A DNA stretch of 64,000 nucleotides from a candidate division WOR-3 bacterium (GCA_965649205.1 CBFGJV010000006.1:26015-90014); one strand, 5' to 3'; shown: positions 10,952 through 61,002, numbered from the stretch's first letter. The notes: generated from the letters alone by a model not told the origin. A program made the numbers and translations.

Positions 10952-11027
10952 GTCAGAAAGCCTTTGTTTGCCTGCGTCAGTACGGTTTTTCGTTTTATTT
11001 AATCCTAAACAATAATCAGGAGGACTT

Positions 11028-12227: not shown

Positions 12228-12239
12228 AGAGGAGCAGAA

Positions 12240-12428
12240 ATGCCGGTCATATATCTGAAGTCTGGCGGCAGCGTGACCTGCGCCGCCTACACTCTCAAGG
12301 AAGGAATGATCCGCGCTGTAGACGTAAAGTTCAACGACGTACCCGGCATCCCGGAAGAAAAGTCAACCATGAGCAATGCGGACGTTTCTCCGGCTAACAT
12401 ACTATATATATTGCCGGGCAAGGTATAA
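12240..12428 (+). CDS. Small hypothetical protein (62 aa)
   Basis: Strong AGGAG SD 6 nt upstream of the ATG and 12 nt after the acd stop. No recognisable motif. Confidence 0.4.
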   Translation: MPVIYLKSGGSVTCAAYTLKEGMIRAVDVKFNDVPGIPEEKSTMSNADVSPANILYILPGKV

Positions 12429-12466
12429 CCGCACAACTCTCGGATTCATACCTCCTTTATGACTGA

Positions 12467-13579
12467 ATGAGCGCTACGTCCCCTCGCGTTCTGGTACGCC
12501 GGGTGGGCGACTTGGCGAATGCCGTCGACGAAGCCTTGGACTTTATCGGCTACGACTTTGCCGGCAAGAAGGTATGGGTCAAACCTAACCTGCTGGGCCC
12601 TCACCCGCCAGAACGGTCAGTTACCACCGCACCAGAACTTGTCCGTCATGTTGTCCGTGCTCTCCGCGCTCGCCAAGCTACAGAAATCTGGGTAGCAGAC
12701 AATCCGGCTGGAGGACTTCAACGTCACATCGCCGAATACCTTGCCCCTACGGGCGTAGTCCAGGCTAGCGAAGGCTGTTTTCGCAGCATATCTGAAACGC
12801 CCGTCACGCTGCGACTGCAATCCCGCTTTATTCCTGAGATAGTAGTTTCCCGCATCATCACTGAAGCAGATGTCATTCTCAATCTCCCCGTGTTCAAAAC
12901 CCATGCCCTCACTATACTCACTGGAGCAGTAAAAAACCTGTTTGGCATTATTCCTGGTGGCCAGAAATCTGCCCTGCACATGCTTGCCCGCTCTGGTGAC
13001 GATTTTGGCGAACTTCTGGTTGATATCTACCAGGCTATCCCAATCCCGGTGCTTACAATAATGGATGCGTTACGCGGTATGGACGGCCTCAACGGTCCTT
13101 CTAGCGGACGCGTACTGTCTTTGGGCAGAATCTTATCCTCGCCCGACCCTGCCGCTCTGGATCTGGTAATGGCTAAGCTGGCTGGCGCAGACCCCCAAAG
13201 AATTCCCACGGTAAGAATTGCCGCTCAACGTGGACTTGGCCCTGCTCACCTAAACGAGATAAACTTGGCAGGCGACTGGGAACCGATACGCGGATTCAAA
13301 CTACCTCCGACCCGGCTCGCCACCAGTCTTACAGGCATCTCCTCCCTGCTCGCCTATCCCCTTCTCCGTCGCTGGCCCCTGCTCAAACCCCACCGCTGTA
13401 TCAAATGTAGCCGCTGCACTGATAACTGCCCAGTTAAGGCTATCAAGCTGATCCCCTTTCCCCAAATAGACCGTTCCAGATGCATACTCTGCTATTGTTG
13501 CGCGGAACTATGTCCAGTGAGCGCCATGCATGTCCCCGGTCAATTCCAAGCGCTGGTGCAAAACCTGCTCCGCCGCTAG
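12467..13579 (+). CDS. DUF362-domain protein with a C-terminal 2x[4Fe-4S] ferredoxin domain
   Basis: The C-terminus has CIKCSRCTDNCP and CILCYCCAELCP (two CxxCxxCxxxCP motifs). The N-terminal ~300 aa matches the DUF362 architecture. Confidence 0.7.
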   Translation: MSATSPRVLVRRVGDLANAVDEALDFIGYDFAGKKVWVKPNLLGPHPPERSVTTAPELVRHVVRALRARQATEIWVADNPAGGLQRHIAEYLAPTGVVQASEGCFRSISETPVTLRLQSRFIPEIVVSRIITEADVILNLPVFKTHALTILTGAVKNLFGIIPGGQKSALHMLARSGDDFGELLVDIYQAIPIPVLTIMDALRGMDGLNGPSSGRVLSLGRILSSPDPAALDLVMAKLAGADPQRIPTVRIAAQRGLGPAHLNEINLAGDWEPIRGFKLPPTRLATSLTGISSLLAYPLLRRWPLLKPHRCIKCSRCTDNCPVKAIKLIPFPQIDRSRCILCYCCAELCPVSAMHVPGQFQALVQNLLRR

Positions 13580-30500: not shown

Positions 30501-33197
30501 CCAAGAATACCTACCCCCGGTCTGAGCCTTACGCGCCGAACGCCATATCCGCCGGAACACCGTAACCGTCACGTTTTCACCACTGGCTGGTCTACCGTCT
30601 GGGAACGCAGCCACTAAATCTAAACCTACAGAATCACCCAGTTCTACCATACCCCTGGTCATCTTTACGCCTACATAGCGTTCTGCTCGGTGGACGATAT
30701 ACGATTCTCGACCGGTAATACTCCTCTGGTTAGTGGCAGTAACCGTCGCTTCGCAGGTCACACGACAGCTGGAAAGCCGCCTCCCTAAATTCAGCTTAGT
30801 TTGTACCTGCAAATGCCCCTGGACGTCTAATTTGCCGCTCCCTGAACTCAGCAGACTTATTGCTTGTTCAGTCTCATCCATGTACGCGCCCCAGCTGAAC
30901 CCTTCGTATCCGGGAGGCGAGAAAGACGTAGGTTCCAAACTCACCGTCCAATCCACCTGTTCGCCTGCCATCTGAGCTCCAAACAGATATCTGGCGTTGA
31001 TATGCGCCGTGAACATGTCACCCGCAACATAGCTATCTTTGTCGCCCTTTACTGTGACTTCGAACTCTGCTGGCCTGTATGCCTCAACCCGAAAATGTCC
31101 ATAGAATTCGTGCTCACCCTGAGAAAAAACAATACTGTAGTAACCGGTGAAAGCCTCTGCCCCCAGTGGCAAAGAAATATCAAAGCTACCCCAGTCAGAC
31201 AATCTCACCCGCCGGGTGAAAATCTCCTCATCCCGCGAATCTGTTACTCGTACCAACCCATCCCTGCGACTGGGAATAATCCACCTGCCTCGCTGCTTGT
31301 GGCGGATAATACCCTTAATGCGAACCGTATCCGCCTGTTTGTACAGCCCCTTTTCGGTGTAAATGAAGCCCGAAGGTTCGGTAGGGTCAGGAGACCAATC
31401 ATAGCTCACGCCAAGCTCATAAGGATGAATTCCAGTGCCCCATTCCGAATGCACAAAACCTTCTCCTCCCGGTTCCCGGACAAACATCCACAAACGAGGA
31501 CTATCCCACTCGCTTCGCGCCTTAACACCCAGCATAGCCCATCCAGGGAACACCACAAACCCGTTCTTATCCGTGCGACCAGTCCAGACGGACCGGTTGG
31601 CATCATCTCGCAACTCAACTGTGACTCCTGCTACAGGTGCGCCGTCAACCAGACGAGTCACATAACCTAGCCCGTTTTCTGGTGAAAACTTTGCTGTCAG
31701 CCCAAACGGTGATACCTGCAGAAAAGCTCGACGATACCTTGCACCCCGTTCTGGTTGGTGAAGCATATCCAGTTCACAGAACAAAAAGCCGGATTTCCTT
31801 CCTCCTAATCCGGGCGCTATATCCAGAGGCAGTAGCGTACGTCTGTTCCTGACCAGCTTTGGTCTCCAAACAGTCTGATAATTAAAACCGGTCTGCCAGA
31901 TTCGCTCCAATTCGCCAGGCTTCTCTTTCTCCTCCTCCCCATGACCTTCGTACCGCTTCCGCCAGAAGGGAATAACTTCCCCGGCCTCCAGCCTCCTCAT
32001 CCTTACCTTCACTGATTCTACATTCACCATCCATACCGGATGACGCAACTCTGTGGCAGACTCCACAATACCCAAACCAACAGGCATACCCAGGGCTGGG
32101 CGATAGGAGACTGTCTTCAGTCGCAAACGGACGTCTTTACCCAGGCGATTGCCAAAACGGTCAGTAAGCTGGCGGGAAAGAATTACCTCGTACTGCGTCT
32201 CTGGAGCAAGTTCTACATAGAGGTACTGCTGCGTGGTTGCAAAATCATATTCGTACCGAGGCAACTTCACTGGAGGAGAGAATTTCACGTGCCTGAGTAA
32301 CTCTTCTTGCGCTACAGGATTGGAAAAAACAAATACCAGCGGATCTTCCGGGTGATGAGCGGACGCCCTCTCCAATCTTTCCAGCCGAAAGTGATTGAAG
32401 GTACGAAACTCTATTCTGCGTTCCTTCTCTAATCCCAAGTTGCCCTCAGCCGCCAATAATCCCTCCGCCAGGATAATCTGGTACTGAGTCTGTTTTCTCA
32501 ACTGCACTTTCGAGGTAAGCACTAACACCGAACTAAGTTTTTCTGGTTCATACCACCATGCATCTTCCGTTCTCTCCTTGGGTCTTGGATGACGGAGTCG
32601 AAAAGGCACCCTGGTTCCGTCGCCCGCCACCAACTGCAGAAATTTCTGGGCACGTTTTGGGTCCATCGGCATGTTAAAGTGAAGCCAGATGTTTGGCTTG
32701 AGTGTTACAAACTCCGCACCATGAAAGGGAACAGAATATTCCAGGCTAGGTCTCACAGTCTCAAACTCAAACTCGTAGTCCTGCTTGAGCATCCGTCCAC
32801 TCAACGAACGGACGCCTCGCGGTATTTTCACTTTAAATCTGGTCGCTGTGGGTAGAACAGTCGCCGGGCGAAAGACGACAGTATTTGGACTCAACCAGTC
32901 ACAAAAACCTGGGACTTCCGGGTCAAGGAGCAGTGGAAAATTCTCCTCCTCAGAGACTTCGCCAAGAGACACCATGGCATCATCGAAAGTCACCAGGATT
33001 TCGCTTGCCTCTTCTGTTTTCTCCAGCACCCCTACGGGTGTCGCAGCCACAATCCGCAGAGAATCGGCCCGACGCAATTCCTCTTCACTAAATACAGGCA
33101 TCGCTACACGCCGAGCCAAGGGCTGTCTAGGTTTCTCGCGGGGACAACTACCGACAACAACTAGGACAGCGCACAGAACCCATGCTCTTGTCCTCAC
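27543..33197 (-). CDS. yfhM: Bacterial alpha-2-macroglobulin (YfhM/ECAM-like) with intact thioester motif; probable lipoprotein
   Basis: 1884 aa. Contains the CLEQ thioester motif (…TYPYECLEQRM…). The N-terminus (VVVGSC) is lipobox-like. GTG start with AAGGAGGA SD. Paired with pbpC as in Proteobacteria. Confidence 0.85.
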   Translation of the reverse strand: MRTRAWVLCAVLVVVGSCPREKPRQPLARRVAMPVFSEEELRRADSLRIVAATPVGVLEKTEEASEILVTFDDAMVSLGEVSEEENFPLLLDPEVPGFCDWLSPNTVVFRPATVLPTATRFKVKIPRGVRSLSGRMLKQDYEFEFETVRPSLEYSVPFHGAEFVTLKPNIWLHFNMPMDPKRAQKFLQLVAGDGTRVPFRLRHPRPKERTEDAWWYEPEKLSSVLVLTSKVQLRKQTQYQIILAEGLLAAEGNLGLEKERRIEFRTFNHFRLERLERASAHHPEDPLVFVFSNPVAQEELLRHVKFSPPVKLPRYEYDFATTQQYLYVELAPETQYEVILSRQLTDRFGNRLGKDVRLRLKTVSYRPALGMPVGLGIVESATELRHPVWMVNVESVKVRMRRLEAGEVIPFWRKRYEGHGEEEKEKPGELERIWQTGFNYQTVWRPKLVRNRRTLLPLDIAPGLGGRKSGFLFCELDMLHQPERGARYRRAFLQVSPFGLTAKFSPENGLGYVTRLVDGAPVAGVTVELRDDANRSVWTGRTDKNGFVVFPGWAMLGVKARSEWDSPRLWMFVREPGGEGFVHSEWGTGIHPYELGVSYDWSPDPTEPSGFIYTEKGLYKQADTVRIKGIIRHKQRGRWIIPSRRDGLVRVTDSRDEEIFTRRVRLSDWGSFDISLPLGAEAFTGYYSIVFSQGEHEFYGHFRVEAYRPAEFEVTVKGDKDSYVAGDMFTAHINARYLFGAQMAGEQVDWTVSLEPTSFSPPGYEGFSWGAYMDETEQAISLLSSGSGKLDVQGHLQVQTKLNLGRRLSSCRVTCEATVTATNQRSITGRESYIVHRAERYVGVKMTRGMVELGDSVGLDLVAAFPDGRPASGENVTVTVFRRIWRSARKAQTGGRYSWLSEKVDEKVATFEVRTESEAVRKWFRPDKPGQYWCKCEMRDRRNNTARTDLEFWVAGKGEAAWMIRDDDLIELVRDKNAYKPGDTAKILVKSPWTGVKAMVTVERELVLDYFGTEISGNADLIRIPIKEEYLPNVFVSVVLLKGRTAYNSFGDEGQDLGKPGFKIGYVELPVDPEAKKLTVVVKTGRTEYQPGQEVEIDLQVLDKKGRGVRSEVSLAVVDLGVLKLVGYRTPDPFSMFYASRSLSVVTAESRLHVIGQRNYGEKGEAAGGGGLDGVGLDGGYDYAYRQKFLETALWIPSLRSDENGRARVRFRVPDNLTTWQIMAVAATVDKFGSGESKFQTNKPLLLVSSLPRFIRPEDRFSAGVMVHNRTDKKMKVTVKATAAKGVRIDGSTSRQVEVEPNRPVEVVFDYLCIGAGEAEFTFEASGEGARDRLRVTLPAIPSVVSEAVALYEQTMDSVIQQTVSVPPDVFAGVGGLEVAVSSSGLTGLERGLEFLRTYPYECLEQRMSKILPFIVGEDVINQFGLSELRGSALRKFVQAELDVVSRYQDESGGFYFWPDLESYAYEKPSPWLSAYTMYVLALAEKKGFQVASRVSERGKSYLTNWLNYGKRGTDWPYSTDEYLTARSLAVYAIALWGEKVESHLPFLLDQVDQMSVYGKAYLLKTLALLPKSVYAEARSNLIRAMNNKLKLEPTMAHYEEEREGGWLFHSDVRTTAVVLQALLEHQGQIEFAEKIVRWLIAERRVGRWRTTQENACVFDALATFYRTYEKERPNFRASVRIAGKDVLSAVFSGRSLKTARRFLPIDSLAKTTLPVNISRKGQGRMYYGLRLYYARKGELKAKDQGFRVEKVIRPVGKVSGYVRGAEYIITLKVHTAQDRIFVVLDDPLPAGWEIVNTSFATERQTQPLSTKSNKQWWGGFNYEETYHDRYLLVATYLTKGVHTETYRVRALTSGRFFLPPTRVEEMYTPEVFGHTGQQYLEIK

Positions 33198-45372: not shown

Positions 45373-46740
45373 CTACCATACCCCGGTTTTCAAATACTCG
45401 TCTATGGAATTCGCCGCCAATCGGCCGGCGCCCATCGCCAGAATAACCGTTGCCGCACCTATCACTATATCTCCGCCAGCGAAAACACCCTTCTTGGAGG
45501 TCCTGCCGGTCTTGGGATCGGCTACAATCGTGCCCCATTTGGATATCTCCAGACCAGGTGTTGTCTGCGGGATCAGCGGATTAGGACCGTTGCCGATCGC
45601 AACCACAACGGTGTCAACAGGAATACGAAACTCCGAACCGGGAATAGGAACTGGCCGTCTGCGACCGGACGCATCCGGTTCCCCCAGCTCCATCCGCAAA
45701 CACTCTATCTCCCTCACCCACCCTTTTTCGTCTGTAACGTACCGCACGGGATTGGTCAGAAATAAGAATTCTATCCCTTCTTCCTCAGCGTGATGTATCT
45801 CCGCTGCTCGTGCCGGCATCTCCTCCCTGGACCGTCGGTAGATTACAAGGGACCGCTCTGCTCCCAGTCGCAACGCGGTACGAGCTGCATCCATAGCCAC
45901 ATTTCCGCCACCAATGGTTGCCACTTGCCTGCCCCGCACTATGGGCGTGTCATAATAGGGAAATAGATAAGCCTTCATAAGATTGGAACGGGTCAGGTAT
46001 TCATTAGCGGAATAAATACCCAGAGCATTTTCTCCTGGTATCCCCATAAACCAAGGGCGGCCCGCGCCAGTCCCGATAAACACCGCATCAAATTCCTCCA
46101 GCAGCTCATCCACCGTCTTCGTCATGCCCACCACGTAATTCAATACCAGCTTGGCACCGGTGCGGCACACAAAATCAACTTCTCGCTGTACTATCGCTTT
46201 GGGCAAACGGAATTCCGGTATGCCATACACCAGAACTCCACCCGGTTTATGCAAAGCTTCAAAAATGGTTACCTCGTGTCCCAGTTTCAGACAATCACCA
46301 GCCACGGTCAACCCGGCAGGCCCTGAACCTACTACTGCCACATTCTTCCCGGTCGGAGGCAACTTCTCGCACATCACGCATTCTGCCTGCTCTGCTTCCC
46401 AATCGGCGATGAACCGTTCCAGATTGCCGATAGCCACCGGTTCCATCTTCTTGCCCAAAACGCACTCACCTTCGCATTGCGTCTCCTGAGGGCAGACTCG
46501 TCCGCATATAGCCGGCAGCACATTCGTCCGTTTCATTATCTTCATCGCCTCCAGGAAGGCACCCTCGGCAATCTGACTCACGAACCCCGGTATGTCCACT
46601 TCTACCGGACAACCCTTCACACAGGAAGGCTTTCGACACTGCAGACACCTCTGGGCTTCGGCTATGGCTTCTTCCGGCGTATATCCGTACGGCACCTCGT
46701 CAAAATTACGTGCCCTCAGCTTGGGGTCCTGCTCTCGCAT
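45373..46740 (-). CDS. nfnB: NADPH-dependent glutamate synthase beta-chain-like oxidoreductase (NfnB/SudA-type). Start taken at the internal Met (MREQDPKLRARNFDEVPYGY)
   Basis: Two N-terminal Cys clusters (CLQCRKPSCVKGCPV, CGRVCPQETQCEGEC). FAD/NAD(P) Rossmann motifs (VAVVGSGPAGL, VATIGGGNVAMD). The ORF-track start at 46821 would overlap nfnA by 59 nt. Confidence 0.8.
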   Translation of the reverse strand: MREQDPKLRARNFDEVPYGYTPEEAIAEAQRCLQCRKPSCVKGCPVEVDIPGFVSQIAEGAFLEAMKIMKRTNVLPAICGRVCPQETQCEGECVLGKKMEPVAIGNLERFIADWEAEQAECVMCEKLPPTGKNVAVVGSGPAGLTVAGDCLKLGHEVTIFEALHKPGGVLVYGIPEFRLPKAIVQREVDFVCRTGAKLVLNYVVGMTKTVDELLEEFDAVFIGTGAGRPWFMGIPGENALGIYSANEYLTRSNLMKAYLFPYYDTPIVRGRQVATIGGGNVAMDAARTALRLGAERSLVIYRRSREEMPARAAEIHHAEEEGIEFLFLTNPVRYVTDEKGWVREIECLRMELGEPDASGRRRPVPIPGSEFRIPVDTVVVAIGNGPNPLIPQTTPGLEISKWGTIVADPKTGRTSKKGVFAGGDIVIGAATVILAMGAGRLAANSIDEYLKTGVW

Positions 46741-46762
46741 CGGCGTACGTTTGGGATTTGGT

Positions 46763-47638
46763 CTAGCCACGACAACCGCCCTTTCCGCCGCAGCAACTGC
46801 GCTTGGCCTGCCGCGTTTCAAACATCTCCAGAGACTGTTTCTCTTCAGGCAGGTACAGTTGCAAACGCTGCATCAGCAAATCAAAGTCAACTTTGTGGCC
46901 GTCAAACTCCGGCCCGTCAACACAGGCCAGCCTGGTCTCGCCATCCACCTCCACCCGACATGCGCCGCACATTCCGGTCGCGTCCAGCATAATAGGATTG
47001 AGACTGACAACGGTGGGAATCGCATACGGCTGGGTCAGCTTGGAAACCATTTTCATCATTATCACCGGCCCTACCGCAAATACCCGGTCTACTTTCCTGC
47101 CACGTTCAATCACCGCTTTCAGAGCATCAGTCACAAGACCTTTCTGACCATAACTACCATCATCTGTCATCACTATGAGCTCATCTGAGACTTTTCTCAT
47201 TTCCTCTTCCATCATACGCAGACCGCCATGACGGAAACCGAGTATGGAAACAACGTAGTTTCCCGCTTGCTTCAACCCCCGCGCCACCGGGTAAATCTCC
47301 GGAGTACCCACTCCTCCGGCAACGCACACTACGGTTCCAAAATTTCTGATGTCTGTGGGTCTGCCTAGCGGACCAATGAAGTCAAGAATAGAATCCCCCG
47401 CTTCTAAAGTGCCCAGAAGCTTGGTCGACTTGCCAACTTCCTGAAATACTATGACCACCACCCCCTCATCTGGTCGCAAATCGCCAATAGTTAAAGGGAT
47501 TCTTTCGCCCTGCTCGTGTATACGCAGCACCACAAATTGACCCGGCCTGGCTTTGCGGGCTATTTCTGGTGCCTCCAAATCCATTCTTTTAATACCGGGC
47601 GCCAGAACTTCCTTTCGCAGTATTTTAGTCAAATGCAC
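46763..47638 (-). CDS. nfnA: Ferredoxin-NADP+ reductase-like subunit (NfnA/SudB; PyrK-like, [2Fe-2S])
   Basis: FAD-binding FNR-like fold (RPGQFVVLRI…) and the C-terminal Cys cluster CGACRVEVDGETRLACVDG. Confidence 0.8.
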   Translation of the reverse strand: MHLTKILRKEVLAPGIKRMDLEAPEIARKARPGQFVVLRIHEQGERIPLTIGDLRPDEGVVVIVFQEVGKSTKLLGTLEAGDSILDFIGPLGRPTDIRNFGTVVCVAGGVGTPEIYPVARGLKQAGNYVVSILGFRHGGLRMMEEEMRKVSDELIVMTDDGSYGQKGLVTDALKAVIERGRKVDRVFAVGPVIMMKMVSKLTQPYAIPTVVSLNPIMLDATGMCGACRVEVDGETRLACVDGPEFDGHKVDFDLLMQRLQLYLPEEKQSLEMFETRQAKRSCCGGKGGCRG

Positions 47639-49275: not shown

Positions 49276-50127
49276 ATGCGCCTTGCTGTAATAACAGCCT
49301 TTGCAGTCTGCGCCTCGGCACTGACCGTTCGAGCAAATCTCCTGGTAAATCCGGATTTTTCCGGATGGACCAATCCGAACAGACCTACAGGCTGGTTTGT
49401 GGAAGACACAACCAAAGCCAGGGTCGAACAAGCTACTAACCCGGTCCGTAGCGCTCCCTATGCGGTTAAACTGACCCGGCGTGTAGCAGGCACTGGCAAC
49501 AACGCCGGTATCATACAATATGTAGCGGTATCTCCCAATCTCGACTATACGCTATCCGTATGGTTTCTGGACGACGACGTGAACGCCAGCGGCGGCTGCG
49601 GCATCAGTTGGTACACCCAAGATACTACCTTTATATCAAGTACCACCAATGCCTATACCGATTCGGCTATTCGCACCTGGCAGAAAGTAGTAAAAACGGC
49701 CACTGCACCGGCCACTGCGGCTCTGGCTAAAGTATACTTCCGAGTGTACGGCTTCACTGGCAGCCCGGCCGGGGGAGTAGTCTATCTGGATGACGCCAGT
49801 TTTGTGCAGGGGTCAGGTGTAACAGAGGACAAATTCTACCCTGCCGCACAGACCTGTCGACTAAGAATCAGCCCCAATCCGACACCAGGCCAAACTGTAA
49901 TGCAGGTAACTCTGACTCAGCGAGAACAAGTTAAACTCGCGGTATACGATCTGACTGGCAGAATCGTCTCCTCTGTTTTCTCTGGCGTCCTGAATGCGGG
50001 TTCGCATTCTTTCTCCTGGAAAGCAATTGATCTGGATAACAAACCTCTGTCTAACGGTCTTTATTTCGTGTTAATGTCAGACGCCAGCGATAAGGTTGCC
50101 GTAGCCAAGCTGCTCATCGAACGCTAG
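49276..50127 (+). CDS. Secreted CBM4/9-like carbohydrate-binding protein with a T9SS (Por) C-terminal sorting domain
   Basis: Signal peptide. NLLVNPDFSGW…YTLSVWF…VYLDDASF is the CBM_4_9-like jellyroll. The C-terminal ~80 aa (KLAVYDLTGRIVSS…NGLYFVLMSD…KLLI) match the T9SS CTD pattern. GAAGGAGG SD 6 nt upstream. Confidence 0.7.
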   Translation: MRLAVITAFAVCASALTVRANLLVNPDFSGWTNPNRPTGWFVEDTTKARVEQATNPVRSAPYAVKLTRRVAGTGNNAGIIQYVAVSPNLDYTLSVWFLDDDVNASGGCGISWYTQDTTFISSTTNAYTDSAIRTWQKVVKTATAPATAALAKVYFRVYGFTGSPAGGVVYLDDASFVQGSGVTEDKFYPAAQTCRLRISPNPTPGQTVMQVTLTQREQVKLAVYDLTGRIVSSVFSGVLNAGSHSFSWKAIDLDNKPLSNGLYFVLMSDASDKVAVAKLLIER

Positions 50128-51605: not shown

Positions 51606-53765
51606 TTGAACAAAGTGCTGACCGCGGTCCTGCTTACTGCTGGTGTGCTGCTAACAGCCGCACAGGGTAACCTGTTGACCAATGGCGACTTTGAACAGCC
51701 GCTCACGGTCGGCTGGAGCCAAGAGTTTGATGATAGCCAGGGGTCATACGTAATCACCCGTGATACAACACTGCAACCAGACCCGGATTTCGAAGTGCGC
51801 ATATATAAGTACTTGCGCTACTACGCCAGGTTGAAACAAACAGTAGCCGTGCCTGGTACAAACGTGCGTTTCTCTGGCGCGGCCAAACTGGTTGCCACTA
51901 AAGGTCCGACCAGCGGTTACTATGCCTATGCTGCCATAATTCTGGAATATCAGAACGCCGGCGGAGAAGTTCTGGGCCGTACCTGGATAATGAAAAAGAT
52001 AGGCGACTTCAATCCCCAGAATACCCCCACTCAGCACTACATACTGACTATAAGCGATGTTTGGGAGAACTACGGTTTTGTTCTCGCTGATGAGTTAGCC
52101 AATCTGCCAGGCATCAACCCCCGGGATATTTCCCGGGTAAGTGTCGTTGTGGAAAGCTACGGCACCGGCGCTTCAGGTTGAGGGGGATGTGAAACCACGA
52201 CGGAGGTCTCCGCCGATGACATAGCCCTCACATACCTGGGCGCTGCTCCATTTCTCACCTACCAGTCAAACACAATTATTGACCCGCCACCCGGAAGAAA
52301 TAACAACGGCCGATTTGATCCGGGCGAGAGCGGCGATATACGTGTGAAAGTGAAGAATGTAGGCAACCAGGAGGCACACACTGTCACCGCAGTTCTGCGG
52401 TCAGGGCATGATCTGTTTGTCGTCACCGACTCTACCGGTAGTTTTGAAGACATACCAGCCGGTGGCAGTGCTGAGAACGATGCGGACCGGTTCTCAATTC
52501 AAGTCAACAGCAGCATGCGTCCCGGCACGACAGTCCTCTGCACCCTCCTGCTGCACTGCGAGAACTGGGGATACGACTGGAAGTATGTTTTCACCCTCCA
52601 GGTAGGCACGGCACCGCGGCCAGGCCAATACGTGGTTACGCTAGATACCGGCTCAGTTTCGCTTTCAGTCTGTGCCATAGGCTCGCTGGGCTTCAACGAG
52701 CCTGGCGGAACTGGTAACGGCTTCCGCGTGCCCAAGACCGTCGCCAACACTCTTTACTATGGTAGCATAATGGCTGGGAATTCAGACGCCTATCTGGTTG
52801 ACCACTTCTTCTCGCGACCTGCTTCTGGTCCCACACACAAGGACTGGGCGATGGAAGAGAGCTTCAGGTTCATATTCCCCGGTTCACCGGCAGATATGCA
52901 CTGGATGAACACAATGAACGATGCAGGTCACACTTCGCCCCGCCGGCTGCGGACAGAGCAGCACTGGTATATGAATGCCAATCCCACTAATTCCAACTGG
53001 ACAGTTGTAACGCTGGAACTGAAGAACGACGGCACCAGCCCGCTGAATGAAATGTACGCCGGCATCATAGGCGATTTTGATGTTGGGTCTTCGCCTACGA
53101 CCAATATTGTCGGTTCAGATGAAACCCGGCGTGCGATCTGGATGGCACAGGCCACAAGCGAAAACCCCACAGTAGGCTTTGTTCTCCTGGACCCGCCGAT
53201 GTTCGCCAACCTGACTGCGGTAGACCACGCGCGCTATGTGTATCCTGATTCGGCTATGACCGATGGTATGAAGTGGCGTCTGCTCAATGGTACCATCTCT
53301 TTACGTCAGTCTAATCGCAGCTATGACTGGTCAGTGCTGGTCTCGGCCGGACCGTTCAACCTGCCAATTGGTTCAAGTCAGAAACTGGCCTTCGCAGTTG
53401 TAGGAGCAACAAGCCGGGCCGGCTGGTTTGCCGCGGTCGAGAGCGCGCAGAAGTGGTACGACGCTAACCTGGTAGGTGTAGAGGAAGAAAAACCGTGCCC
53501 TGCCTACATCGAACAGTCTCTGCTACTTCGGCCCAATCCTTTCTCTCGTGCCACTTACGTGTACTACTTCGCACCGACAGCATCCCGCGTATGCCTGTCC
53601 GTGTATGACATCTTGGGCCGGGAAATAGAACGAACGTATTTTGATGCTGGTGCAGGCGTAAACCGCTACGTCTGGCAACCTAAAAACGTTACTCCTGGTA
53701 TCTACTTCGTGAAAGCGACCACACCAAACCACGAAACTACAGCTAGAGCTCTTCTGCTGGAATAA
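51606..53765 (+). pseudogene. T9SS cargo protein (CBM4/9-like N-domain, CARDB-like middle, Por C-terminal sorting domain) interrupted by a single in-frame TGA at 52179-52181
   Basis: The ORFs 51606-52181 and 52344-53765 are in the same frame. The frame reads open across the gap, and the translation remains protein-like (…GESGDIRVKVKNVGNQEAHTVTAV…). Signal peptide with an NLLTNGDFEQP N-terminus. The C-terminus (LLLRPNPFSRATYVYYFAPT…GIYFVKATTPNHETTARALLL) matches the T9SS CTD. Confidence 0.7.
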
Positions 53766-53858: not shown

Positions 53859-56243
53859 ATGAACAAGGCAGAGATGTCTATGATGTCGGCACTAGTGCTG
53901 GCCGGAGCGGCTCTGGCGCAGCCGATTGGTGCGGACGCGGCCATCAAATGCAGAGGCGGGCGAGCCGGTGGAGTTCGCGGACGCTGTCCTGTACTCGCTG
54001 CCGGACGGCTCCCAGGTGCAGGGCACGATCACAGATAAAACTGGCAGTTTCGCCCTTACCGCGCTTCGTCCCGGACGTTACTATCTAGAGGTCTCTTTCA
54101 TCGGATATCAGACGAAAACAGTGGACAATATTGAATGCGCGGAGGGAGCCAGACTGGACCTGGGTCGGCTGGAATTGCAGGCAAAGCCGGTACCGGTAGA
54201 AGGCGCGGAGGCAACAGCTACCACTCTTACCATTTCTCGCAAGCTGGACAAGATTGTGATTGACGTTACCAAACTGCTCAATGCCGGGTCGGGCACCGCG
54301 GTGGATGCTCTGAAAAACGCGCCGTCGGTGAAGGTGAACATTGACGACAACGTCACCCTGCGCGGCAGTTCCAACTTCAAGGTACTGGTGGACGGCAGAC
54401 CGAGCGAGCTGGAGCCACAGGACGCCTTGAAGCAGATTCCGGCCGCGACGATCGACAATCGGCCAGGTACGAGGCGGATGGGCCCGCGGGTATCGTCAAC
54501 ATACTGCTGAAGAAGCAGAAGGGTCCGGGCATCAGCGGGATGGCTAACGCCAACGCAGGTCTGAACAACCGGTATGGCACTGACCTCCTGGCCGGGTATC
54601 GTGAGGGGAAAGTCAACGTCTACGGCGGCGGCAACATCAACCGCTTCTCGTGGCTGAACCGCAGTGAGTCAAAGAGGAAGATAGTCACAGGAAGCGATAC
54701 TCTTGTTACAGCGAGCAAGGGTTCGGGCCGCGGGGGCCCGGTCTTTGGTGGCGGCCGGGCTGGTGGAGACATCGAGCTGGGGCCCAGGGATAAGGTCGGT
54801 CTGTCGTGCCGGATGCGCGGTTTTCGCACCGGCGGTGTCTGCGGTTCGGATGCAACAGAGCGTCGTCTGCCTCAAAATTCGGTCAGGCACTATACGACCG
54901 AGGAAACCTGGCTTTGGACCGGCACAGCACTGTTCGGCATGGCCGATTACGAGCACGGGTTTGATACCAGCGGCCAGAAGTTGACCGGACGGCTCTACCT
55001 CATCAATCGTTCCGGCGGCTCCAGCGGGTTGCGCCAGGAGATGGAAGCAAAAGATACAGTCTATGGTAGACGCAATGAGCAGGGAAGGCCGTGGCTGCGT
55101 CTTACCGGTGAACTGGGGTACGAGAAACCGGCACTGGCCGGCGGCAAGCTGGAATCGGGCTACGAAGGTAATCTGGAACGCACGTCGGACGATATGAAGC
55201 AGTGGCAGTACGATACAGCCGCGCACGCCTACGAGCCGGATACATTGTCCAATCACTCCAACTCTGGAGCAGACCAGGTGCACGCGGCGTACGCCACATG
55301 GTCAACAGAGTGGCGCGGGCTGGGAATACAGCCCGCTCTGCGCGTGGAGTATGAGGGCCGCGCGGTCGAGGTATTGGACACGGATTCGACCTACCTGGTG
55401 AACCGATGGGACGCATTTCCCAGCCTGCACTTGTCTTACGGCCTGCCCGCGAATCAGCAAGTGAGCGCGAGCTATTCCCGTCGGGTGAACCGGCCAAGCA
55501 TCTGGGAGCTGGACCCGTTCCCGAACTGGCAGGGGCCGCACAGCGTGTACCAGGGCAACCCGCTGCTTTCCCCTGAGTTCACCGATTCCTGGGAGGCCGG
55601 GTACGAGTTGTCGTTCGGACAGAACTCGGTCAACGCGGGTCTGTACTACCGTGTCACGCGCGACCTGTTTCAGTGGGTGACGATGAAGTATGCTCCGGAC
55701 ACGGCTGCACTCTTGACTACACCGCGCAATGTGGGACAGGACTATTCGCTGGGAGGCGAGTTCTCAGCCAATCTCAATCCGTGGAAGTGGCTGACGCTCG
55801 CGCCCAGCGCGGACCTGTACGACTATCGCGTTACCGGCAATCTGCTCGGCCAGGACTTCGCCCGTTCGAGTTTCGCCTGGAGCAGTTCCCTCAGCCTGAC
55901 TCTGCGCGCACCCTTTGGCACACAGGTACAGTTGGATGGAAACTACACTGCTCCAACGGTCACGTCTCAGGGCAGAGAAGGAGGCTGGTTCGATACCGAT
56001 GTGGCGGTCAGGCAGATGTTCTTGAACCGGACATTGTCAGTTACCCTACGGATCGGACACATCTTCGGCGGTGTGCCCTGGAGAACTGAATCAGCGGGCC
56101 CGGGGTTTTCCGCCAGCTCATCCTATTTCCACGACGAAAGGGTGGTGACTCTTTCCATAAGCTACAACCTGAACAACTTCCGGCCCAACCCGAAAATGCG
56201 CGCTGGCGAAGGCGAAGAAATGCAAGGTGGTCCGGGTCGCTGA
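53859..56243 (+). pseudogene. Outer-membrane TonB-dependent-receptor-like beta-barrel protein (CarboxypepD_reg + plug-like + barrel) disrupted by two frameshifts
   Basis: Three consecutive ORFs lie in frames 0/1/0. The first carries the signal peptide (MSMMSALVLAGAALAQPIGADAA). The second carries the carboxypeptidase-regulatory-like and plug motifs (VQGTITDKTGSFAL…; DALKNAPSVKVN…LRGSSNFKVLVDGRP). Frame 0 resumes upstream of the third ORF's ATG with conserved …ARYEADGPAGIVNILLKKQ, and the barrel ends …SISYNLNNF. Confidence 0.6.
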
Positions 56244-56307
56244 GTTGCAACTTCGGTTCTGGTCTGCTTGACACGGGGCAGGTGGTTTCTATCATAACTT
56301 TCTTACC

Positions 56308-57216
56308 TTGAGTACCAAAAGCGAATCTGTTTCGCCCCAGTCCATCCGGCCCTATGTGTACTATCCGGGCTGCACGCTCTACACCAAGGGACGGAGTCTG
56401 GACCTGTGCGCGCGCAAGGCAGCGGAGCGCGTAGGATTCAGTCTGGCTGAGATGCAGTCGTGGACCTGCTGTGGAGCGATATACAACACCAATTCAGACG
56501 ATTTCGCGGCGCAGGTTGGGCCGGTGCGTAATCTGGCCAGGGCGAGTCAGGCAGGCGACAAGCTGGTTACCCTGTGTGCCGCGTGTTACAACGTGCTGAA
56601 ACGGGCGAATGACAACCTGAATGCGAGGGGAAACGAGGAGACGCGGGACAGGCTGCTGGCATTCGTGGACGAAAAGTTCGAGCGGCCGGTAGAAGTGGTG
56701 CATTATCTGGATGTGCTGAAAACTGACATAGGCTGGGAGAATCTGAAGCAGAAGGTGACAAAGTCTCTGGCTGGACTGAAGGTGGCGTCCTACTACGGCT
56801 GTCTGATGGTGCGCCCGGCCTCGGTGCTGAGCTTCGACGACCCGGACAATCCCAGCGTGATGGACGAACTGGTGTCAGCTCTAGGCGGCCAGCCGGTAGA
56901 CTATGATTTCAAGACAGAATGTTGCGGCGGGTATCTGGTTACGAACCAGCGCGCCACCGCGGTGGAGTGTTCGCGCCGAGTATTGGACAACGCGGCCCAG
57001 ACCGGTGCAGAGGTGGTGGTGACTACCTGTCCTCTTTGTCAGTACAACTTGGACGCGTTGCAGAAAGATATGGGCCGGGAAAGCCAGATGCCGGTTTTGT
57101 ACTTCACCCAGCTTCTCGGGCTTGCAGTCGGGCTGGACGAGTCAGAGCTTGCCTTGGACTATAACCAGACAGATGCGAGGCCGCTCTTGAAGTCCAAGGG
57201 TCTGCTTACCGCGTGA
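56308..57216 (+). CDS. hdrB: Heterodisulfide reductase subunit B-like protein (two CCG domains)
   Basis: YYPGCTL…C…CCGAIY and YYGCLMVRP…CCGGYL…CPLCQ are the two Cys-rich CCG domains. The TTG start is uncertain. Confidence 0.78.
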   Translation: MSTKSESVSPQSIRPYVYYPGCTLYTKGRSLDLCARKAAERVGFSLAEMQSWTCCGAIYNTNSDDFAAQVGPVRNLARASQAGDKLVTLCAACYNVLKRANDNLNARGNEETRDRLLAFVDEKFERPVEVVHYLDVLKTDIGWENLKQKVTKSLAGLKVASYYGCLMVRPASVLSFDDPDNPSVMDELVSALGGQPVDYDFKTECCGGYLVTNQRATAVECSRRVLDNAAQTGAEVVVTTCPLCQYNLDALQKDMGRESQMPVLYFTQLLGLAVGLDESELALDYNQTDARPLLKSKGLLTA

Positions 57217-57220
57217 GGTT

Positions 57221-58540
57221 GTGAGCATGGCAACCACCAGAAAGGCATTGGTCATCGGCGGCGGCATAGCGGGCATTCAGGCGGCTCTGGACATAGCCAA
57301 CGCAGGAGTAGAGGTAGTGCTGGTGGAACGCAAGTCATCTATCGGCGGGCATATGGCGCAGTTGTCCGAGACTTTCCCCACCCTGGACTGCTCGCAGTGC
57401 ATCCTCACGCCGAAGATGGTGGACGCGGCTCAGCACCCGCGCATCAGGCTGATGACCTACTCCGAAGTGGAATCGGTCAGCGGCTCGACCGGCGATTTCC
57501 AGGTACGGATCAGGCAGAAGGCCAAATATGTGGACTGGGATGTATGCAACGGTTGCGGCCTGTGTATGACCAAGTGTCCGGGCAGGACAGAGTCTGAGTT
57601 CAATGAGGGACTGGAGAAACGCACGGCGATACACAGGCTATTCCCTCAAGCAGTACCGAACAAACCGGTCATAGATCGCAACTCGTGCATCTATCTGCAG
57701 AAGGGCAAATGTCGGGTATGCGAGAAAATCTGCCCGCCCCAGGCAATAAGGTTCGAGGACCAGGACCGGCTAGTTCAAGAAAACGTTGGCGCTATCGTAG
57801 TAGCTACCGGATTTGAGCTGCTTCACCTTAAAACTTATGGTTCCTACGGACTGGAACGGCATCCGGACGTTCTCACCGGTCTGGAGTTTGAGCGGCTGCT
57901 ATCAGCGTCCGGCCCGACCAAGGGAGAAGTGAAGCGACCTTCGGACGGCAAGGAACCCAAACGTGTTGTGTTTGTGAAGTGCGCGGGCTCAAGAGACAGG
58001 GAACGGGGCGTACCATACTGCTCCAAGGTGTGCTGCATGTACTCGGCCAAGCACGCGCTTCTGTACAAGCACCGGGTGCACGACGGCGAGGCCATCATTT
58101 TCTACATTGACGTGAGGACAGCGGGTAAGGACTTTGAGGAGTTCTACAAGCGGGCAACAGACGAGGGTGTTATCTATGTGCGCGGCAAAGTGTCCAAAAT
58201 TTTCCGCCGGGGCGACAAGATGGTGGTATGGGGTTCGGATACGGTCGCAGGCCGGAAAATGGAAGTGGAAGCTGATTTGGTGGTATTGGCCACAGCGATG
58301 ATTCCAGATTCCCATGCCAGCTCGATAGCAGATATGCTGGGTATCCAAGTAGATCAGTATGGATTCTTCACTGAAGCGCAGTACAAACTGAAACCGGTAG
58401 AAACAAACCGGCCAGGCATATTCCTAGCTGGCGCTTGCCAAGGGCCGAAGGATATTCCAGAAACAGTAGCTCAGGGCTCAGCCGCTGCAAGCAAGGTTCT
58501 GGAGCTTCTGGCACAAAGACAGGAGGAGAAGCGTGGCTAA
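57221..58540 (+). CDS. hdrA: Heterodisulfide reductase subunit A-like FAD/Fe-S oxidoreductase (short form, no MvhD or C-terminal ferredoxin domain)
   Basis: FAD motif ALVIGGGIAGIQAALD. Inserted ferredoxin-like clusters CNGCGLCMTKCP and CRVCEKICPP. 439 aa. Confidence 0.78.
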   Translation: MSMATTRKALVIGGGIAGIQAALDIANAGVEVVLVERKSSIGGHMAQLSETFPTLDCSQCILTPKMVDAAQHPRIRLMTYSEVESVSGSTGDFQVRIRQKAKYVDWDVCNGCGLCMTKCPGRTESEFNEGLEKRTAIHRLFPQAVPNKPVIDRNSCIYLQKGKCRVCEKICPPQAIRFEDQDRLVQENVGAIVVATGFELLHLKTYGSYGLERHPDVLTGLEFERLLSASGPTKGEVKRPSDGKEPKRVVFVKCAGSRDRERGVPYCSKVCCMYSAKHALLYKHRVHDGEAIIFYIDVRTAGKDFEEFYKRATDEGVIYVRGKVSKIFRRGDKMVVWGSDTVAGRKMEVEADLVVLATAMIPDSHASSIADMLGIQVDQYGFFTEAQYKLKPVETNRPGIFLAGACQGPKDIPETVAQGSAAASKVLELLAQRQEEKRG

Positions 58541-59522
58541 GCCGAGGTTCGGATTTTACTGGGCGGCGTCGTGCGGCGGATGCGAAATTTCAGTATTGGA
58601 CACGAACGAAAAGCTTCTGGACATTGCGGCCAGGGCTGAAATCCTGCTCTGGCCAGTGGCAATGGATACCAAAAAGGCGGATGTGGAGAAGATGCCGGAC
58701 AAGCACCTAGACACAGTGTTCTTCAATGGTTCGGTGCGTAACTCAGAGCAGGAGGAATGGGCGCACCTGCTTCGGCGCAAGGCTAAGACACTGGTGGCGT
58801 TCGGATCCTGCGCGCATCACGGCTGCATCCCCGGACTGGCCAACCTCTATAGCCGAGAGGAAATCTTCCGCACTATTTATCGCAACGAACCCTCGCTCGA
58901 CGAATCAAGGGGAATCGAACCGAAGACAAAAGTTACAGTAGCGGAGGGAGAGTTGACCCTGCCGGAGTTCTTTGACCTGGTTAGACCGCTGGACCAGGTA
59001 GTGGAAGTTGACTATTATCTCCCGGGGTGTCCACCGCCAGTACCGATTGTCCTAAAAGCGATGGACACAATAATATCCGGTAGTCTGCCGGCAAAAGGCA
59101 CTGTGCTTGCGCCGACCAAAGCGTTGTGCGACGAGTGCTCGCGGAACGAAAGTCTGCCTAAGAAGATGCCGGACGTGAAACGTACCTGGGAAGTGCAGGC
59201 AGACCCCAAGGTGTGCTTTCTGCGGCAGGGCATCATCTGTATGGGCCCGGCTACGCGCTCCGGGTGCGAGCAACGTTGTATCAACGGCAACTGGCCCTGT
59301 ACCGGTTGTATGGGCCCGGTTCCGGAGGTGAAAGACCAGGGCGCAAAGATGATTTCCGCCCTGGGTGCAATACTCGCTTTAGACGAGGAAGCAAAACTCA
59401 CTGAAGACCAGACCAAAGCTCTGATAGCGAAAGTCAAAGATCCGGTAGGCACGTTCTATATGTACGGCTTGGCCAGTGCAACCATAAACAAAAGACAACG
59501 GAAAGAGTCTGCTGGAGCTTAG
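58533..59522 (+). CDS. mvhG: [NiFe]-hydrogenase small subunit, MvhG-like (group 3c)
   Basis: Proximal-cluster motifs CGGCE, GSCAHHGC and GCPP. C-terminal medial/distal cluster cysteines. Overlaps hdrA by 8 nt. Confidence 0.8.
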   Translation: MAKPRFGFYWAASCGGCEISVLDTNEKLLDIAARAEILLWPVAMDTKKADVEKMPDKHLDTVFFNGSVRNSEQEEWAHLLRRKAKTLVAFGSCAHHGCIPGLANLYSREEIFRTIYRNEPSLDESRGIEPKTKVTVAEGELTLPEFFDLVRPLDQVVEVDYYLPGCPPPVPIVLKAMDTIISGSLPAKGTVLAPTKALCDECSRNESLPKKMPDVKRTWEVQADPKVCFLRQGIICMGPATRSGCEQRCINGNWPCTGCMGPVPEVKDQGAKMISALGAILALDEEAKLTEDQTKALIAKVKDPVGTFYMYGLASATINKRQRKESAGA

Positions 59523-59523
59523 T

Positions 59524-61002
59524 ATGGACAGACGCATAACTGTTGACCCGATTACACGACTGGAAGGACATGGAAAGATAGAAATCTTTTTGGACGAGCA
59601 CGGCGAGGTAGACAACGCCTATCTCCAAGTTCCTGAACTACGTGGTTTCGAGCAGTTCTGCGTGGGCAGGAAGGCTGAAGATATGCCCCAGCTTACCTCA
59701 CGCATCTGTGGTGTCTGTCCGGTCGCCCACCACTACGCTGCTACCAAGGCACTGGATATGGCCTTTGGCGTAGAACCAACCGCAACCGCAAGGAAGCTGC
59801 GCGAGCTCATCTACGCCGGTTATATCATCTATGATCACATTTTGCACTTCTACTTTCTGGCCGGGCCGGATTTTGTGTTAGGACCGGACGCACCCAAGGA
59901 AAAGCGGAATATCCTCGGTGTTATAGAAAAAGTAGGACTGGATGTGGCAAGAGAAGTAATTAAGCACCGAGCCTATGGTCAGAAGATAACAGAGATTCTC
60001 GGGGGCAAACCAACCCATCCTGTGTCGGGCGTTCCCGGAGGCCAGACCAAATCACTAGACGAAGATGGACGGAAGCAAATAGAAGAAATGGCGAAGTCCT
60101 GCGTAGCATTCGCTGAATTCAGTTTGGAGCTTTTCCGCAAGACGGTATTGGAAAACAAACAGTATATGAACCTTGTCACTGACCCCCGTTTCAGTCTCAA
60201 ACTGTACAATATGGGTCTTGTAGACGAGAAGAACCGGGTGAACTTCTACGACGGCAAAGTACGCGTAACTACCCCAAACGGTGAGGAGTACCTCAAATTT
60301 GAGTTAAAGGATTACCTGAAGCATATCCGGGAACACGTTCTGGAATGGAGCTATGTGAAGGTACCTTACCTTGCGGCAATTGGCTACAGGGGACTCACTG
60401 ATGGCCCGGAATCTGGCATCTATCGTGTAGGACCTCTAGCTCGCTTGAATGCGGCCGAAGGAATGGCAACACCCAAAGCAGATGCTGCATACCGAGAAAT
60501 GTACAACACTTTCGGCACCAAACCGGTACACTCTACGCTTGCATTCCACTGGGCTAGGCTTATAGAATTGCTCTACGCTTCCGAACTAGCGCTTGCACTT
60601 GCCTCGGACACCAACATCACCGGAACAGACATCCGCAATATGGACTACAAGATGCAGGAGCAGGGCATCGGCGTGGTAGAGGCGGCGCGGGGAACTCTGT
60701 TCCATCACTACTGGCTGGATGAAAACAGATTGGTGAAGAAAGTGAATCTGATTGTGGCCTCAACCAACAATATGGGCCCGATCTGTATGTCAGTCCGAGA
60801 CGCAGCAAGGAGTCTAATCCACGCCGGCAAGGCAGACGACGGACTGTTGAATACGGTAGAAATGTTCTTCCGTGCCTACGACCCGTGCTTTGCCTGTGCT
60901 AGCCACACCCTCGGAAGCGCACCGCTGGAAGTCAACCTGCGCCTCTCAGATGGCACATTACTAGAGACCCTGACAAACCAATCCAACCGGGATACACATT
61001 AA
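59524..61002 (+). CDS. mvhA: [NiFe]-hydrogenase large subunit, MvhA-like
   Basis: N-terminal RICGVC and C-terminal DPCFACASH Ni-Fe ligand motifs, plus RLEGHGKI. 492 aa. Confidence 0.88.

Follow-up and report, generated by a model that had tools for sequence, protein, structure and literature searches.

An hdrB-hdrA-mvhG-mvhA operon of a candidate division WOR-3 bacterium without the connecting iron-sulfur modules of the canonical Mvh-Hdr complex

The Mvh-Hdr complex is a model system for flavin-based electron bifurcation, and its structures give a role to every iron-sulfur (FeS) cluster between the hydrogenase, the flavin and HdrB. We analysed a stretch of 64,000 nucleotides from a candidate division WOR-3 bacterium (GCA_965649205.1 CBFGJV010000006.1:26015-90014; called here the window), in which an earlier note had pointed to four tightly linked genes, hdrB, hdrA, mvhG and mvhA, standing without hdrC or mvhD. 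Four open reading frames (ORFs) of the + strand were found at these positions, just downstream of a putative promoter:

56268..56295, + strand: sigma-70-like promoter TTGACA-16 nt-TATCAT, just 5' of hdrB, of predicted function
56308..57216, + strand: hdrB, 302 aa, two CCG domains, TTG start
57227..58540 (ATG start, 437 aa) or 57221-58540 (GTG start, 439 aa), + strand: hdrA core, HdrA6 type
58533..59522, + strand: mvhG, 329 aa, small subunit of a group 3c-type [NiFe] hydrogenase, three [4Fe-4S] clusters
59524..61002, + strand: mvhA, 492 aa, [NiFe] hydrogenase large subunit

The four genes form one operon. The 8-nt overlap between hdrA and mvhG had been correctly reported, whereas the interval between hdrB and hdrA, given as 5 nt, measures 4 nt from the GTG start or 10 nt from the ATG start, and that between mvhG and mvhA is 1 nt and not 2 nt. 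The database copy of the window HdrA (P0121) is an identical protein of 437 aa that starts at ATG 57227. The mvhG start codon follows a GGAGGAG Shine-Dalgarno sequence located inside hdrA and overlaps the hdrA stop by 8 nt. The neighbours are as the note had described them: upstream lies a TonB-dependent receptor gene broken into two frames, downstream a convergent fabH. Genes for ribosomal proteins, SecY, dnaN, glycolytic enzymes and seryl-tRNA synthetase mark the window as an ordinary stretch of chromosome.

The window HdrA matches residues 140-569 of the structurally characterised HdrA 5odc_A (E 1e-129, 436 bits, 55% identity) and covers positions 136-562 of the 777 of the NCBIfam HdrA2 model. 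This span corresponds to the thioredoxin-reductase domain that binds flavin adenine dinucleotide (FAD), with its [4Fe-4S] cluster, and to the inserted ferredoxin domain (2x[4Fe-4S]), whose two clusters are both kept, CNGCGLCMTKCP and CIYLQKGKCRVCEKICP aligning with the ferredoxin insert of 5odc_A. The equivalents of Cys386/399/403/404 (thioredoxin-reductase-domain cluster), E356 and K409, residues named in PMC12054007, are all present, as are those of Cys194 and Cys197, which lie in a FPTLDCSQCILT motif identical to that of the canonical relative. The description of a short 439-aa HdrA that has the ferredoxin insert and no C-terminal ferredoxin or MvhD-like domain was thus accurate in these respects but overlooked the loss of the N-terminal [4Fe-4S] domain (~136 aa), as the protein begins at the equivalent of residue 137-140. 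At its other end it stops at about the equivalent of residue 569, with a TAA overlapping the mvhG start, and the C-terminal 2x[4Fe-4S] ferredoxin domain is missing. Judged by its predicted domains, the window HdrA has the known architecture of HdrA6, a named class without N- and C-terminal domains that is the second most common in methane-metabolising archaea (attributed to Chadwick et al. 2022; PMC12054007).

The window HdrB contains two Pfam CCG domains in which all motif cysteines of both CCG sets are present, and the HdrB proteins of methanogens (9sfi_C, 7bkb_B and 5odc_B) align with it end to end with E values of about 1e-40. On these grounds it is assigned to the catalytic disulfide-reductase subunit type, with two predicted non-cubane [4Fe-4S] sites. 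Its TTG start lies only 12 nt past the end of the conserved -10 hexamer, so that a leader is almost absent, and differences among relatives in the first 16 codons show no third-position bias, that is, no coding-like substitution pattern. The N-terminal 13-15 residues of HdrB are therefore uncertain.

To look for the missing connectors, the HdrC, the MvhD and both terminal HdrA domains of the closest canonical relative were used as tblastn queries, with no credible hit anywhere in the 64 kb window. A scan of all six frames between 53 and 64 kb gave a single CxxCxxCxxxC motif, inside the HdrA insert; no FlpD domain or MvhD-like sequence was found in the operon or in the window, and none of the four ORFs carries a fused FlpD or an extra Fer4 domain. 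Read-through of a stop codon into a hidden partner was ruled out, as hdrA ends in TAA and hdrB in a TGA placed in a frame other than that of hdrA (TAA in L086, a locus from an independent assembly). The proposal that no ORF of hdrC or mvhD type flanks the cluster is thus borne out by the tblastn, motif and domain scans; hdrC and mvhD are neither adjacent nor fused, and L086 shows the same junctions. Likewise, no second hdrA was found in the window, nor beside the hdrB-hdrA pair in L001, L086, L087 and L168. The Hdr part therefore comprises a typical HdrB and a typical HdrA core and lacks HdrC and both terminal HdrA domains, and this operon should not be filed as a canonical bifurcating MvhADG-HdrABC.

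The closest database matches to the window HdrA are two other short proteins, P0001 (92% identity) and P0002 (90%), followed by full-length HdrAs of 653 aa (80-82%). The latter are encoded in hdrC-hdrB-hdrA-mvhD-mvhG-mvhA operons of WOR-3-like relatives (L002-L005), whose proteins are 69-82% identical to those of the window and in which the retained genes stand in the same order. By contrast with the window, where hdrB follows directly on the promoter and hdrA and mvhG overlap at stop and start, these operons have hdrC, mvhD and both terminal HdrA domains. Against L003, identity is 82% for the window HdrA (with residues 136-568 of a 653-aa protein) and 69% for HdrB, and the alignment places both HdrA truncations within a few residues of domain boundaries. 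In a neighbour-joining tree the window clade is nested among full-length HdrAs, far from other short HdrAs. Because of these identities, of the nesting in the tree and of truncations that fall at domain boundaries, the window operon is evidently a recent, lineage-specific descendant of a canonical operon. The comparison indicates that four modules were removed at gene or domain boundaries, namely HdrC (2x[4Fe-4S]), MvhD ([2Fe-2S]) and the two end domains of HdrA, N-terminal ([4Fe-4S]) and C-terminal (2x[4Fe-4S]), and that translational coupling was kept through the reduction.

The promoter matches the consensus at 11 of 12 positions and lies within a conserved block of about 45 nt that begins near 56262. 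This block is kept in L086, L001 and L168, where the sequence further upstream is unrelated; it should be noted that only 73-276 nt are available upstream of hdrB in these three loci, for which the absence of hdrC is deduced from the conserved block. As the same block (GTCTGCTTGACA-N17-TATTCT) also stands before hdrC in L169, a related locus that retains this gene, the comparison suggests that hdrC was excised and that the native operon promoter was kept when it was lost. An inverted repeat (CTGC...GCAG) occupies both sides of the -35 hexamer (window 56262-56352) and might be an operator. A second, identical copy of the ~45-nt block, with a different upstream flank, is found at the contig end of L001 (9126-9168). 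Its presence suggests that this promoter serves another operon in the L001 genome as well, and the repeated block may be the cause of the break in the L001 assembly at that point.

All FeS, FAD-site and NiFe ligands are kept in the four proteins. Pairwise ratios of nonsynonymous to synonymous substitution rates (dN/dS), calculated within the reduced clade and against L003 (dS 0.35-2.5), ranged from 0.06 to 0.14 for the three genes compared: 0.12-0.14 for hdrB, 0.06-0.07 for hdrA and 0.08-0.10 for mvhG. L086, which comes from the independent sequencing run SRR8371833, encodes hdrB(302)-hdrA(437)-mvhG(329) with the same 10-nt spacer and 8-nt overlap at 82-86% nucleotide identity. Since the junctions are the same in L086, dN/dS is low and the window is ordinary chromosome, an assembly artefact or a pseudogene is very unlikely.

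The reduced clade is small, with about five sequences among 5.8 billion clustered proteins (the window protein P0121, P0001, P0002, P0122 and P0007), and scans for HdrA in genome and metagenome contig collections returned no further member, the relatives recovered there being all at most 66% identical. In four lineages (the window, L086, L001/L168 and L087) hdrB stands beside a short hdrA, and neither hdrC nor mvhD nor a second hdrA adjoins the pair. In L001 and L168, the pair is followed by genes for a sensor kinase and a sigma-54 regulator, and in L087 hdrB and a short hdrA of 469 aa are followed by a rubrerythrin gene, with a TspO gene on the opposite strand upstream. The conserved core is thus hdrB with a short hdrA, and the link to the hydrogenase is variable.

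Short HdrAs as such are not rare. Of 160 loci retrieved from genomes and metagenomes, about 40 have one, the majority in Anaerolineae. At such loci, the short hdrA is followed by a gene for an HdrA with an N-terminal and usually a C-terminal domain, and hdrC-hdrB precede wherever the contig reaches (for instance L013:7447-12558, L073:8634-13113 and L052:8176-12639). In the ~22 loci checked for motifs, the short copy keeps the DCxQC motif (Cys194/Cys197) whereas the partner bearing the N-terminal domain lacks both cysteines. In the tandem HdrA5/HdrA6 of anaerobic methanotrophic (ANME) archaea, one subunit supplies the Cys197 that completes its partner's N-terminal cluster, and the same complementarity has been described for both the HdrA5/6 and the 12/13 pairs (PMC9012536). 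The bacterial short/long cysteine pattern thus corresponds to the heterodimer complementarity proposed for ANME HdrA5/6 and is widespread in bacteria. The window HdrA shares with ANME HdrA6 the domain layout and the Cys197 equivalent (PMC9012536, PMC12054007). However, HdrA6 in ANME archaea stands in tandem with an HdrA5-type protein, whereas the window HdrA has no tandem partner HdrA and no hdrC and is in one operon with mvhGA; the tree further indicates that its reduced form has a recent origin of its own in a full-length HdrA, separate from that of the ANME and Anaerolineae type of HdrA6. The domain architecture is thus known, and the unusual features are its independent origin, the lack of both hdrC and a partner HdrA, and the fact that it is coupled directly to mvhGA.

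Regarding the hydrogenase, the window MvhG aligned over its full length with 5odc_E (residues 8-319 against 6-295, E 1e-62) with the cluster cysteines conserved, and MvhA aligned with the methanogen MvhA 5odc_F (E 2e-106) and with 7t2r_D, the HydL subunit of Acetomicrobium mobile (E 5e-109), with both CxxC pairs of the NiFe site present. The large-subunit motifs of group 3c, L1 ICGxCxxxH and L2 AYDPCxxCATH (PMC6085437), are both found in MvhA, L2 with Ser replacing Thr. The best NCBIfam matches were VhuG for MvhG (192 bits, under the cut-off of 450) and VhuA for MvhA (404 bits, under the cut-off of 800); these are equivalog models built for methanogens. MvhG is 74% identical to that of L003 and 86% identical to that of L086, MvhA is ~81% identical to the proteins of L169 and of L170, and over its first 83 residues it shares 90% identity with the MvhA fragment of L003. 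The concern that the hydrogenase might belong to a lineage not associated with Hdr was dispelled, as its closest relatives, at 74-90% identity, are found in canonical hdrCBA-mvhDGA operons. The enzyme agrees with group 3c in its motifs, its three-cluster small subunit and its relatives, and departs from it in the absence of MvhD and in scoring under the curated methanogen cut-offs. We therefore assign MvhAG, on sequence grounds, as a cytoplasmic [NiFe] hydrogenase of group 3c type. The MvhA tail past the CxxCxxH motif, of ~30 residues, is conserved in the relatives L169 and L170 and aligns with the HydL C-terminus (7t2r_D). Neither a maturation protease nor a hyp gene was recognised in those window ORFs that were scanned.

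Two loci place this hydrogenase clade in other company. L169:8545-12432 (GCA_016294905.1, JAEAMF010001208.1) has hdrC-hdrB-mvhG-mvhA with neither hdrA nor mvhD and a spacer of 67 nt between hdrB and mvhG; its MvhG and MvhA are 78% and 81% identical to those of the window, and its hdrB and hdrC show a raised dN/dS of 0.34-0.49 against L003. In L170:3-3625, a distant HdrA paralogue (36% identity to the HdrA of L003) with a C-terminal ferredoxin domain is encoded 12 nt 5' of mvhG-mvhA, with no mvhD between, and the MvhG is 83% identical to that of L003; this adds a third non-canonical partner to those of the clade. Since both loci pair the hydrogenase with different partners and no adjacent mvhD, MvhD seems dispensable for electron delivery by the MvhG of this clade.

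In the solved complexes, FAD receives electrons from MvhAG by way of MvhD and the C-terminal region of HdrA; the high-potential branch then runs from the thioredoxin-reductase-domain cluster through HdrC to HdrB, and the low-potential branch from the N-terminal cluster to the inserted ferredoxin domain (PMC9012536, PMC13518236). Because all three links are missing, this canonical wiring, as deduced from the gene content, could not run on the four window proteins alone. We lean slightly towards the tentative reading that these proteins nevertheless constitute a self-contained, rewired H2:disulfide reductase. In such an enzyme, H2 would be oxidised at MvhA and electrons would flow through the three MvhG clusters to the HdrA core, entering either at the FAD face bared by the loss of MvhD and of the terminal domains or at the inserted ferredoxin domain. 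The HdrA core would then pass them directly to HdrB, without HdrC, and HdrB would reduce a disulfide. We infer here the formation of a complex, the docking sites of its subunits, the direct transfer from HdrA to HdrB and the substrate. In one conformational state seen in Methanococcus maripaludis, there is a direct connection between FAD and the [2Fe-2S] cluster of VhuD (PMC13518236), which makes docking of a hydrogenase cluster at the FAD face geometrically conceivable. The enzyme would most likely not be bifurcating in the canonical way. In a more ambitious version, which we hold improbable, the four proteins would need no others for flavin-based electron bifurcation, and no smaller bifurcating enzyme of Hdr type would be known: the HdrA flavin would receive its electrons straight from MvhG, HdrB would be supplied straight from the thioredoxin-reductase-domain cluster, and the inserted ferredoxin domain would pass the low-potential electron to ferredoxin.

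The self-contained enzyme is favoured because the excisions are clean, because the promoter and the translational coupling are kept and because relatives wire the hydrogenase without mvhD. It is also favoured by the finding that four lineages are without adjacent partners, when every other short HdrA examined has its partners next door. Several observations nevertheless weigh against it. The solved complexes offer no such path: the hydrogenase feeds in by way of MvhD and the C-terminal domain of HdrA, the low-potential branch needs an N-terminal cluster completed by Cys197 of the partner HdrA, and HdrB is reached only through HdrC (PMC9012536, PMC13518236). The window HdrA retains Cys194/Cys197 and the E356/K409 bifurcating signature, as expected of an HdrA partnered with an N-terminal domain, although this may be simple inheritance. 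In two of the four reduced lineages, L001/L168 and L087, no hydrogenase genes stand beside the hdrB-hdrA pair, so that the link between the hydrogenase and HdrA/HdrB is not obligatory. Neither did we find clear features that would compensate for the lost modules: MvhG and MvhA contain no clade-specific insertions apart from 5 extra residues at the MvhG C-terminus, the N-terminal extension of HdrB is specific to the reduced clade but may not be translated, and the relative-rate comparison gave an extra divergence of only 2-4 identity points for HdrA and MvhG and none for HdrB.

The retained cysteines are what would be expected if the operon were completed in trans, an alternative that we regard as possible. 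The short HdrA would form a heterodimer with a paralogue of HdrA5-like or type II character, encoded elsewhere and bearing N- and C-terminal domains; this partner would offer docking for an MvhD and an HdrC also encoded elsewhere, and the whole would be a canonical-style bifurcating H2:disulfide/ferredoxin oxidoreductase. The structural logic of the solved complexes argues for this arrangement, as does the pairing of every other HdrA6-type protein examined with a partner of this kind, which in ~22 bacterial loci was seen to have lost Cys194/197 in complementary fashion, while the window HdrA retains Cys194/197, E356 and K409. Spare connectors exist in this gene pool, since L002 and L003, two sister lineages, have additional genes for type II HdrA fusions, FlpD/MvhD and HdrC-like proteins, and the second promoter block at the L001 contig end hints at a paralogous operon; moreover, hdrABC and mvhADG are unlinked in some methanogens (PMC6085437). 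On the other hand, a partner gene is present neither in the 64 kb window nor beside the pair in the four reduced lineages, although elsewhere it is always adjacent, the clean loss of every connector from the operon would be odd if they were still needed, and L169 and L170 have MvhGA of this clade without an adjacent mvhD. The earlier note had offered a reduced architecture and partners encoded elsewhere as two unranked readings. The reduced architecture emerges from our analysis as a real, selected state, and the electron path is left between the self-contained enzyme, tentatively preferred, and completion in trans, which comes next in probability.

The remaining explanations dispense with a joint enzyme or with the locus itself. 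It is unlikely, although conceivable, that the genes are co-transcribed but functionally separate, MvhAG being a stand-alone soluble hydrogenase (for example acting with ferredoxin), HdrB and the HdrA core a separately fed disulfide reductase, and their adjacency a leftover of the ancestral operon. The occurrence of hdrB with a short hdrA but no hydrogenase genes in L001/L168 and L087, the other partners of the hydrogenase in L169 and L170 and the purifying selection on each module would all fit. However, the 8-nt hdrA/mvhG overlap and the Shine-Dalgarno sequence inside hdrA are conserved in the window and in L086, pointing to coupled, stoichiometric synthesis, and group 3c hydrogenases are so far known only with Hdr-type partners (PMC6085437). 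Slightly less credible still is a decaying operon, a remnant heading for loss in which the hdr genes have no coherent function. The loci can be arranged in a series of stepwise losses (hdrC, the N-terminal domain, the C-terminal domain with mvhD, then mvhGA in L001 and L087; hdrA and mvhD in L169), and the dN/dS of 0.34-0.49 of hdrB and hdrC in L169 would suit such a course; in the window clade, by contrast, the ORFs are intact, the ligands are kept, dN/dS is 0.06-0.14, the promoter is conserved and the deletions are in frame and at domain boundaries. Finally, the source is a metagenome assembly (P0121 and the MvhG copy P0124 are on an NCBI contig of 105,610 bp) and the upstream TonB-dependent receptor gene is frameshifted, so that a chimeric or collapsed contig that dropped hdrC, mvhD and parts of hdrA had to be considered. 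We judge this extremely improbable: L086, from a different run, has an identical architecture and identical junctions at only ~84% nucleotide identity, L001, L168 and L087 share the hdrB and short hdrA layout, and a collapse would not yield three clean in-frame boundaries and a conserved promoter.

Compared with the MvhADG-HdrABC of methanogens (5ODC, 7BKB, 8RVU and 9SFI), the window operon has homologous MvhA, MvhG, HdrB and HdrA core with the same cofactor ligands and E356/K409, but it lacks six of the FeS clusters per protomer that wire the canonical complex, and its host is a bacterium with no sign of coenzyme M/coenzyme B metabolism. The sHdrA protein of the sulfur-oxidising Hdr-like complex (6TJR) is also a reduced HdrA flavoprotein, without the N- and C-terminal cluster domains and partnered with HdrB-type subunits; unlike the window HdrA, it has no inserted ferredoxin domain, works with HdrC-type subunits and has no link to a hydrogenase. 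The match of 6tjr_A to the window HdrA reached 158 bits over residues 191-429 only, against 436 bits for the bifurcating HdrA. Membership of the sHdr systems (sHdrB1B2C1C2 with a minimal sHdrA) was thus rejected in view of the ferredoxin insert, this weaker match, the single hdrB and the absence of hdrC. Four-subunit soluble [NiFe] hydrogenases, such as the group 3b sulfhydrogenase, the group 3d Hox enzyme and the A. mobile NiFe-HydABCSL (7T2R), follow a similar logic in which large and small subunits are joined to FeS/flavin subunits, and MvhA scores as well against 7t2r_D as against methanogen MvhA. Their HydS/HoxY small subunits are short, however, whereas that of the window is of the long three-cluster MvhG type, for which reason a HydABCSL-type assignment was rejected; their partner modules are of NuoEF or GltD type, whereas that of the window is of Hdr type.

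In this operon the connecting modules have all been removed while the catalytic ends and the flavin are kept under strong purifying selection, which provides a rare natural test of which parts an energy-conserving Mvh-Hdr needs. The full operon and the partial versions found in close relatives (such as hdrC-hdrB-mvhG-mvhA) can be read as a natural series of deletions. Should the four-subunit form prove to work by itself, it would represent a far simpler path from H2 to a disulfide and would separate the modules essential for bifurcation from those needed for delivery only. If partners in trans are required, the idea of an HdrA5/HdrA6 heterodimer, which so far comes from ANME genomes, would extend to bacteria and to a hydrogenase-linked case. 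Either way, counts of hdrA and mvhA genes in metagenome-assembled genomes would be misleading as evidence of a bifurcating Mvh-Hdr for this lineage.

Other genes of the window touch on electron transfer. A pair resembling NfnAB/SudAB (45373-47638, - strand), made of a 482-aa protein with Fer4_20 and Pyr_redox_2 domains and a 291-aa protein with a DHODB_Fe-S_bind domain, is of the electron-bifurcating transhydrogenase/sulfide dehydrogenase type and lies ~9 kb upstream of the hdr-mvh operon. At 8562-10951 are genes similar to those for the alpha and beta subunits of 2-oxoacid:ferredoxin oxidoreductases, followed by an acyl-CoA dehydrogenase gene (11028-12227) and a gene for a DUF362 protein with a two-cluster ferredoxin domain (12467-13579). 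Because of this ferredoxin-linked gene group (8562-13579), the host evidently runs a ferredoxin-dependent metabolism, as far as its gene content tells.

The TonB-dependent receptor upstream of the operon (53926-56243) is encoded in two frames, the CarboxypepD_reg and Plug domains at 53926-54510 and the beta-barrel at 54540-56243. The G+C content of this region is ~0.60, against ~0.53 for the window; a pseudogene or frameshift, an error in sequencing and foreign DNA are all conceivable. On the - strand, 27543-33197 encodes a bacterial alpha-2-macroglobulin of 1884 aa adjoining a penicillin-binding protein 1C-like gene. The names carried by the closest MvhG and HdrA matches point to a host that is probably of candidate division WOR-3 or closely related to it. 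Two proteins with C-terminal sorting domains for type IX secretion are encoded at 49276-50127 and 52344-53765, which fits a WOR-3-like host of the Fibrobacteres-Chlorobi-Bacteroidetes (FCB) group.

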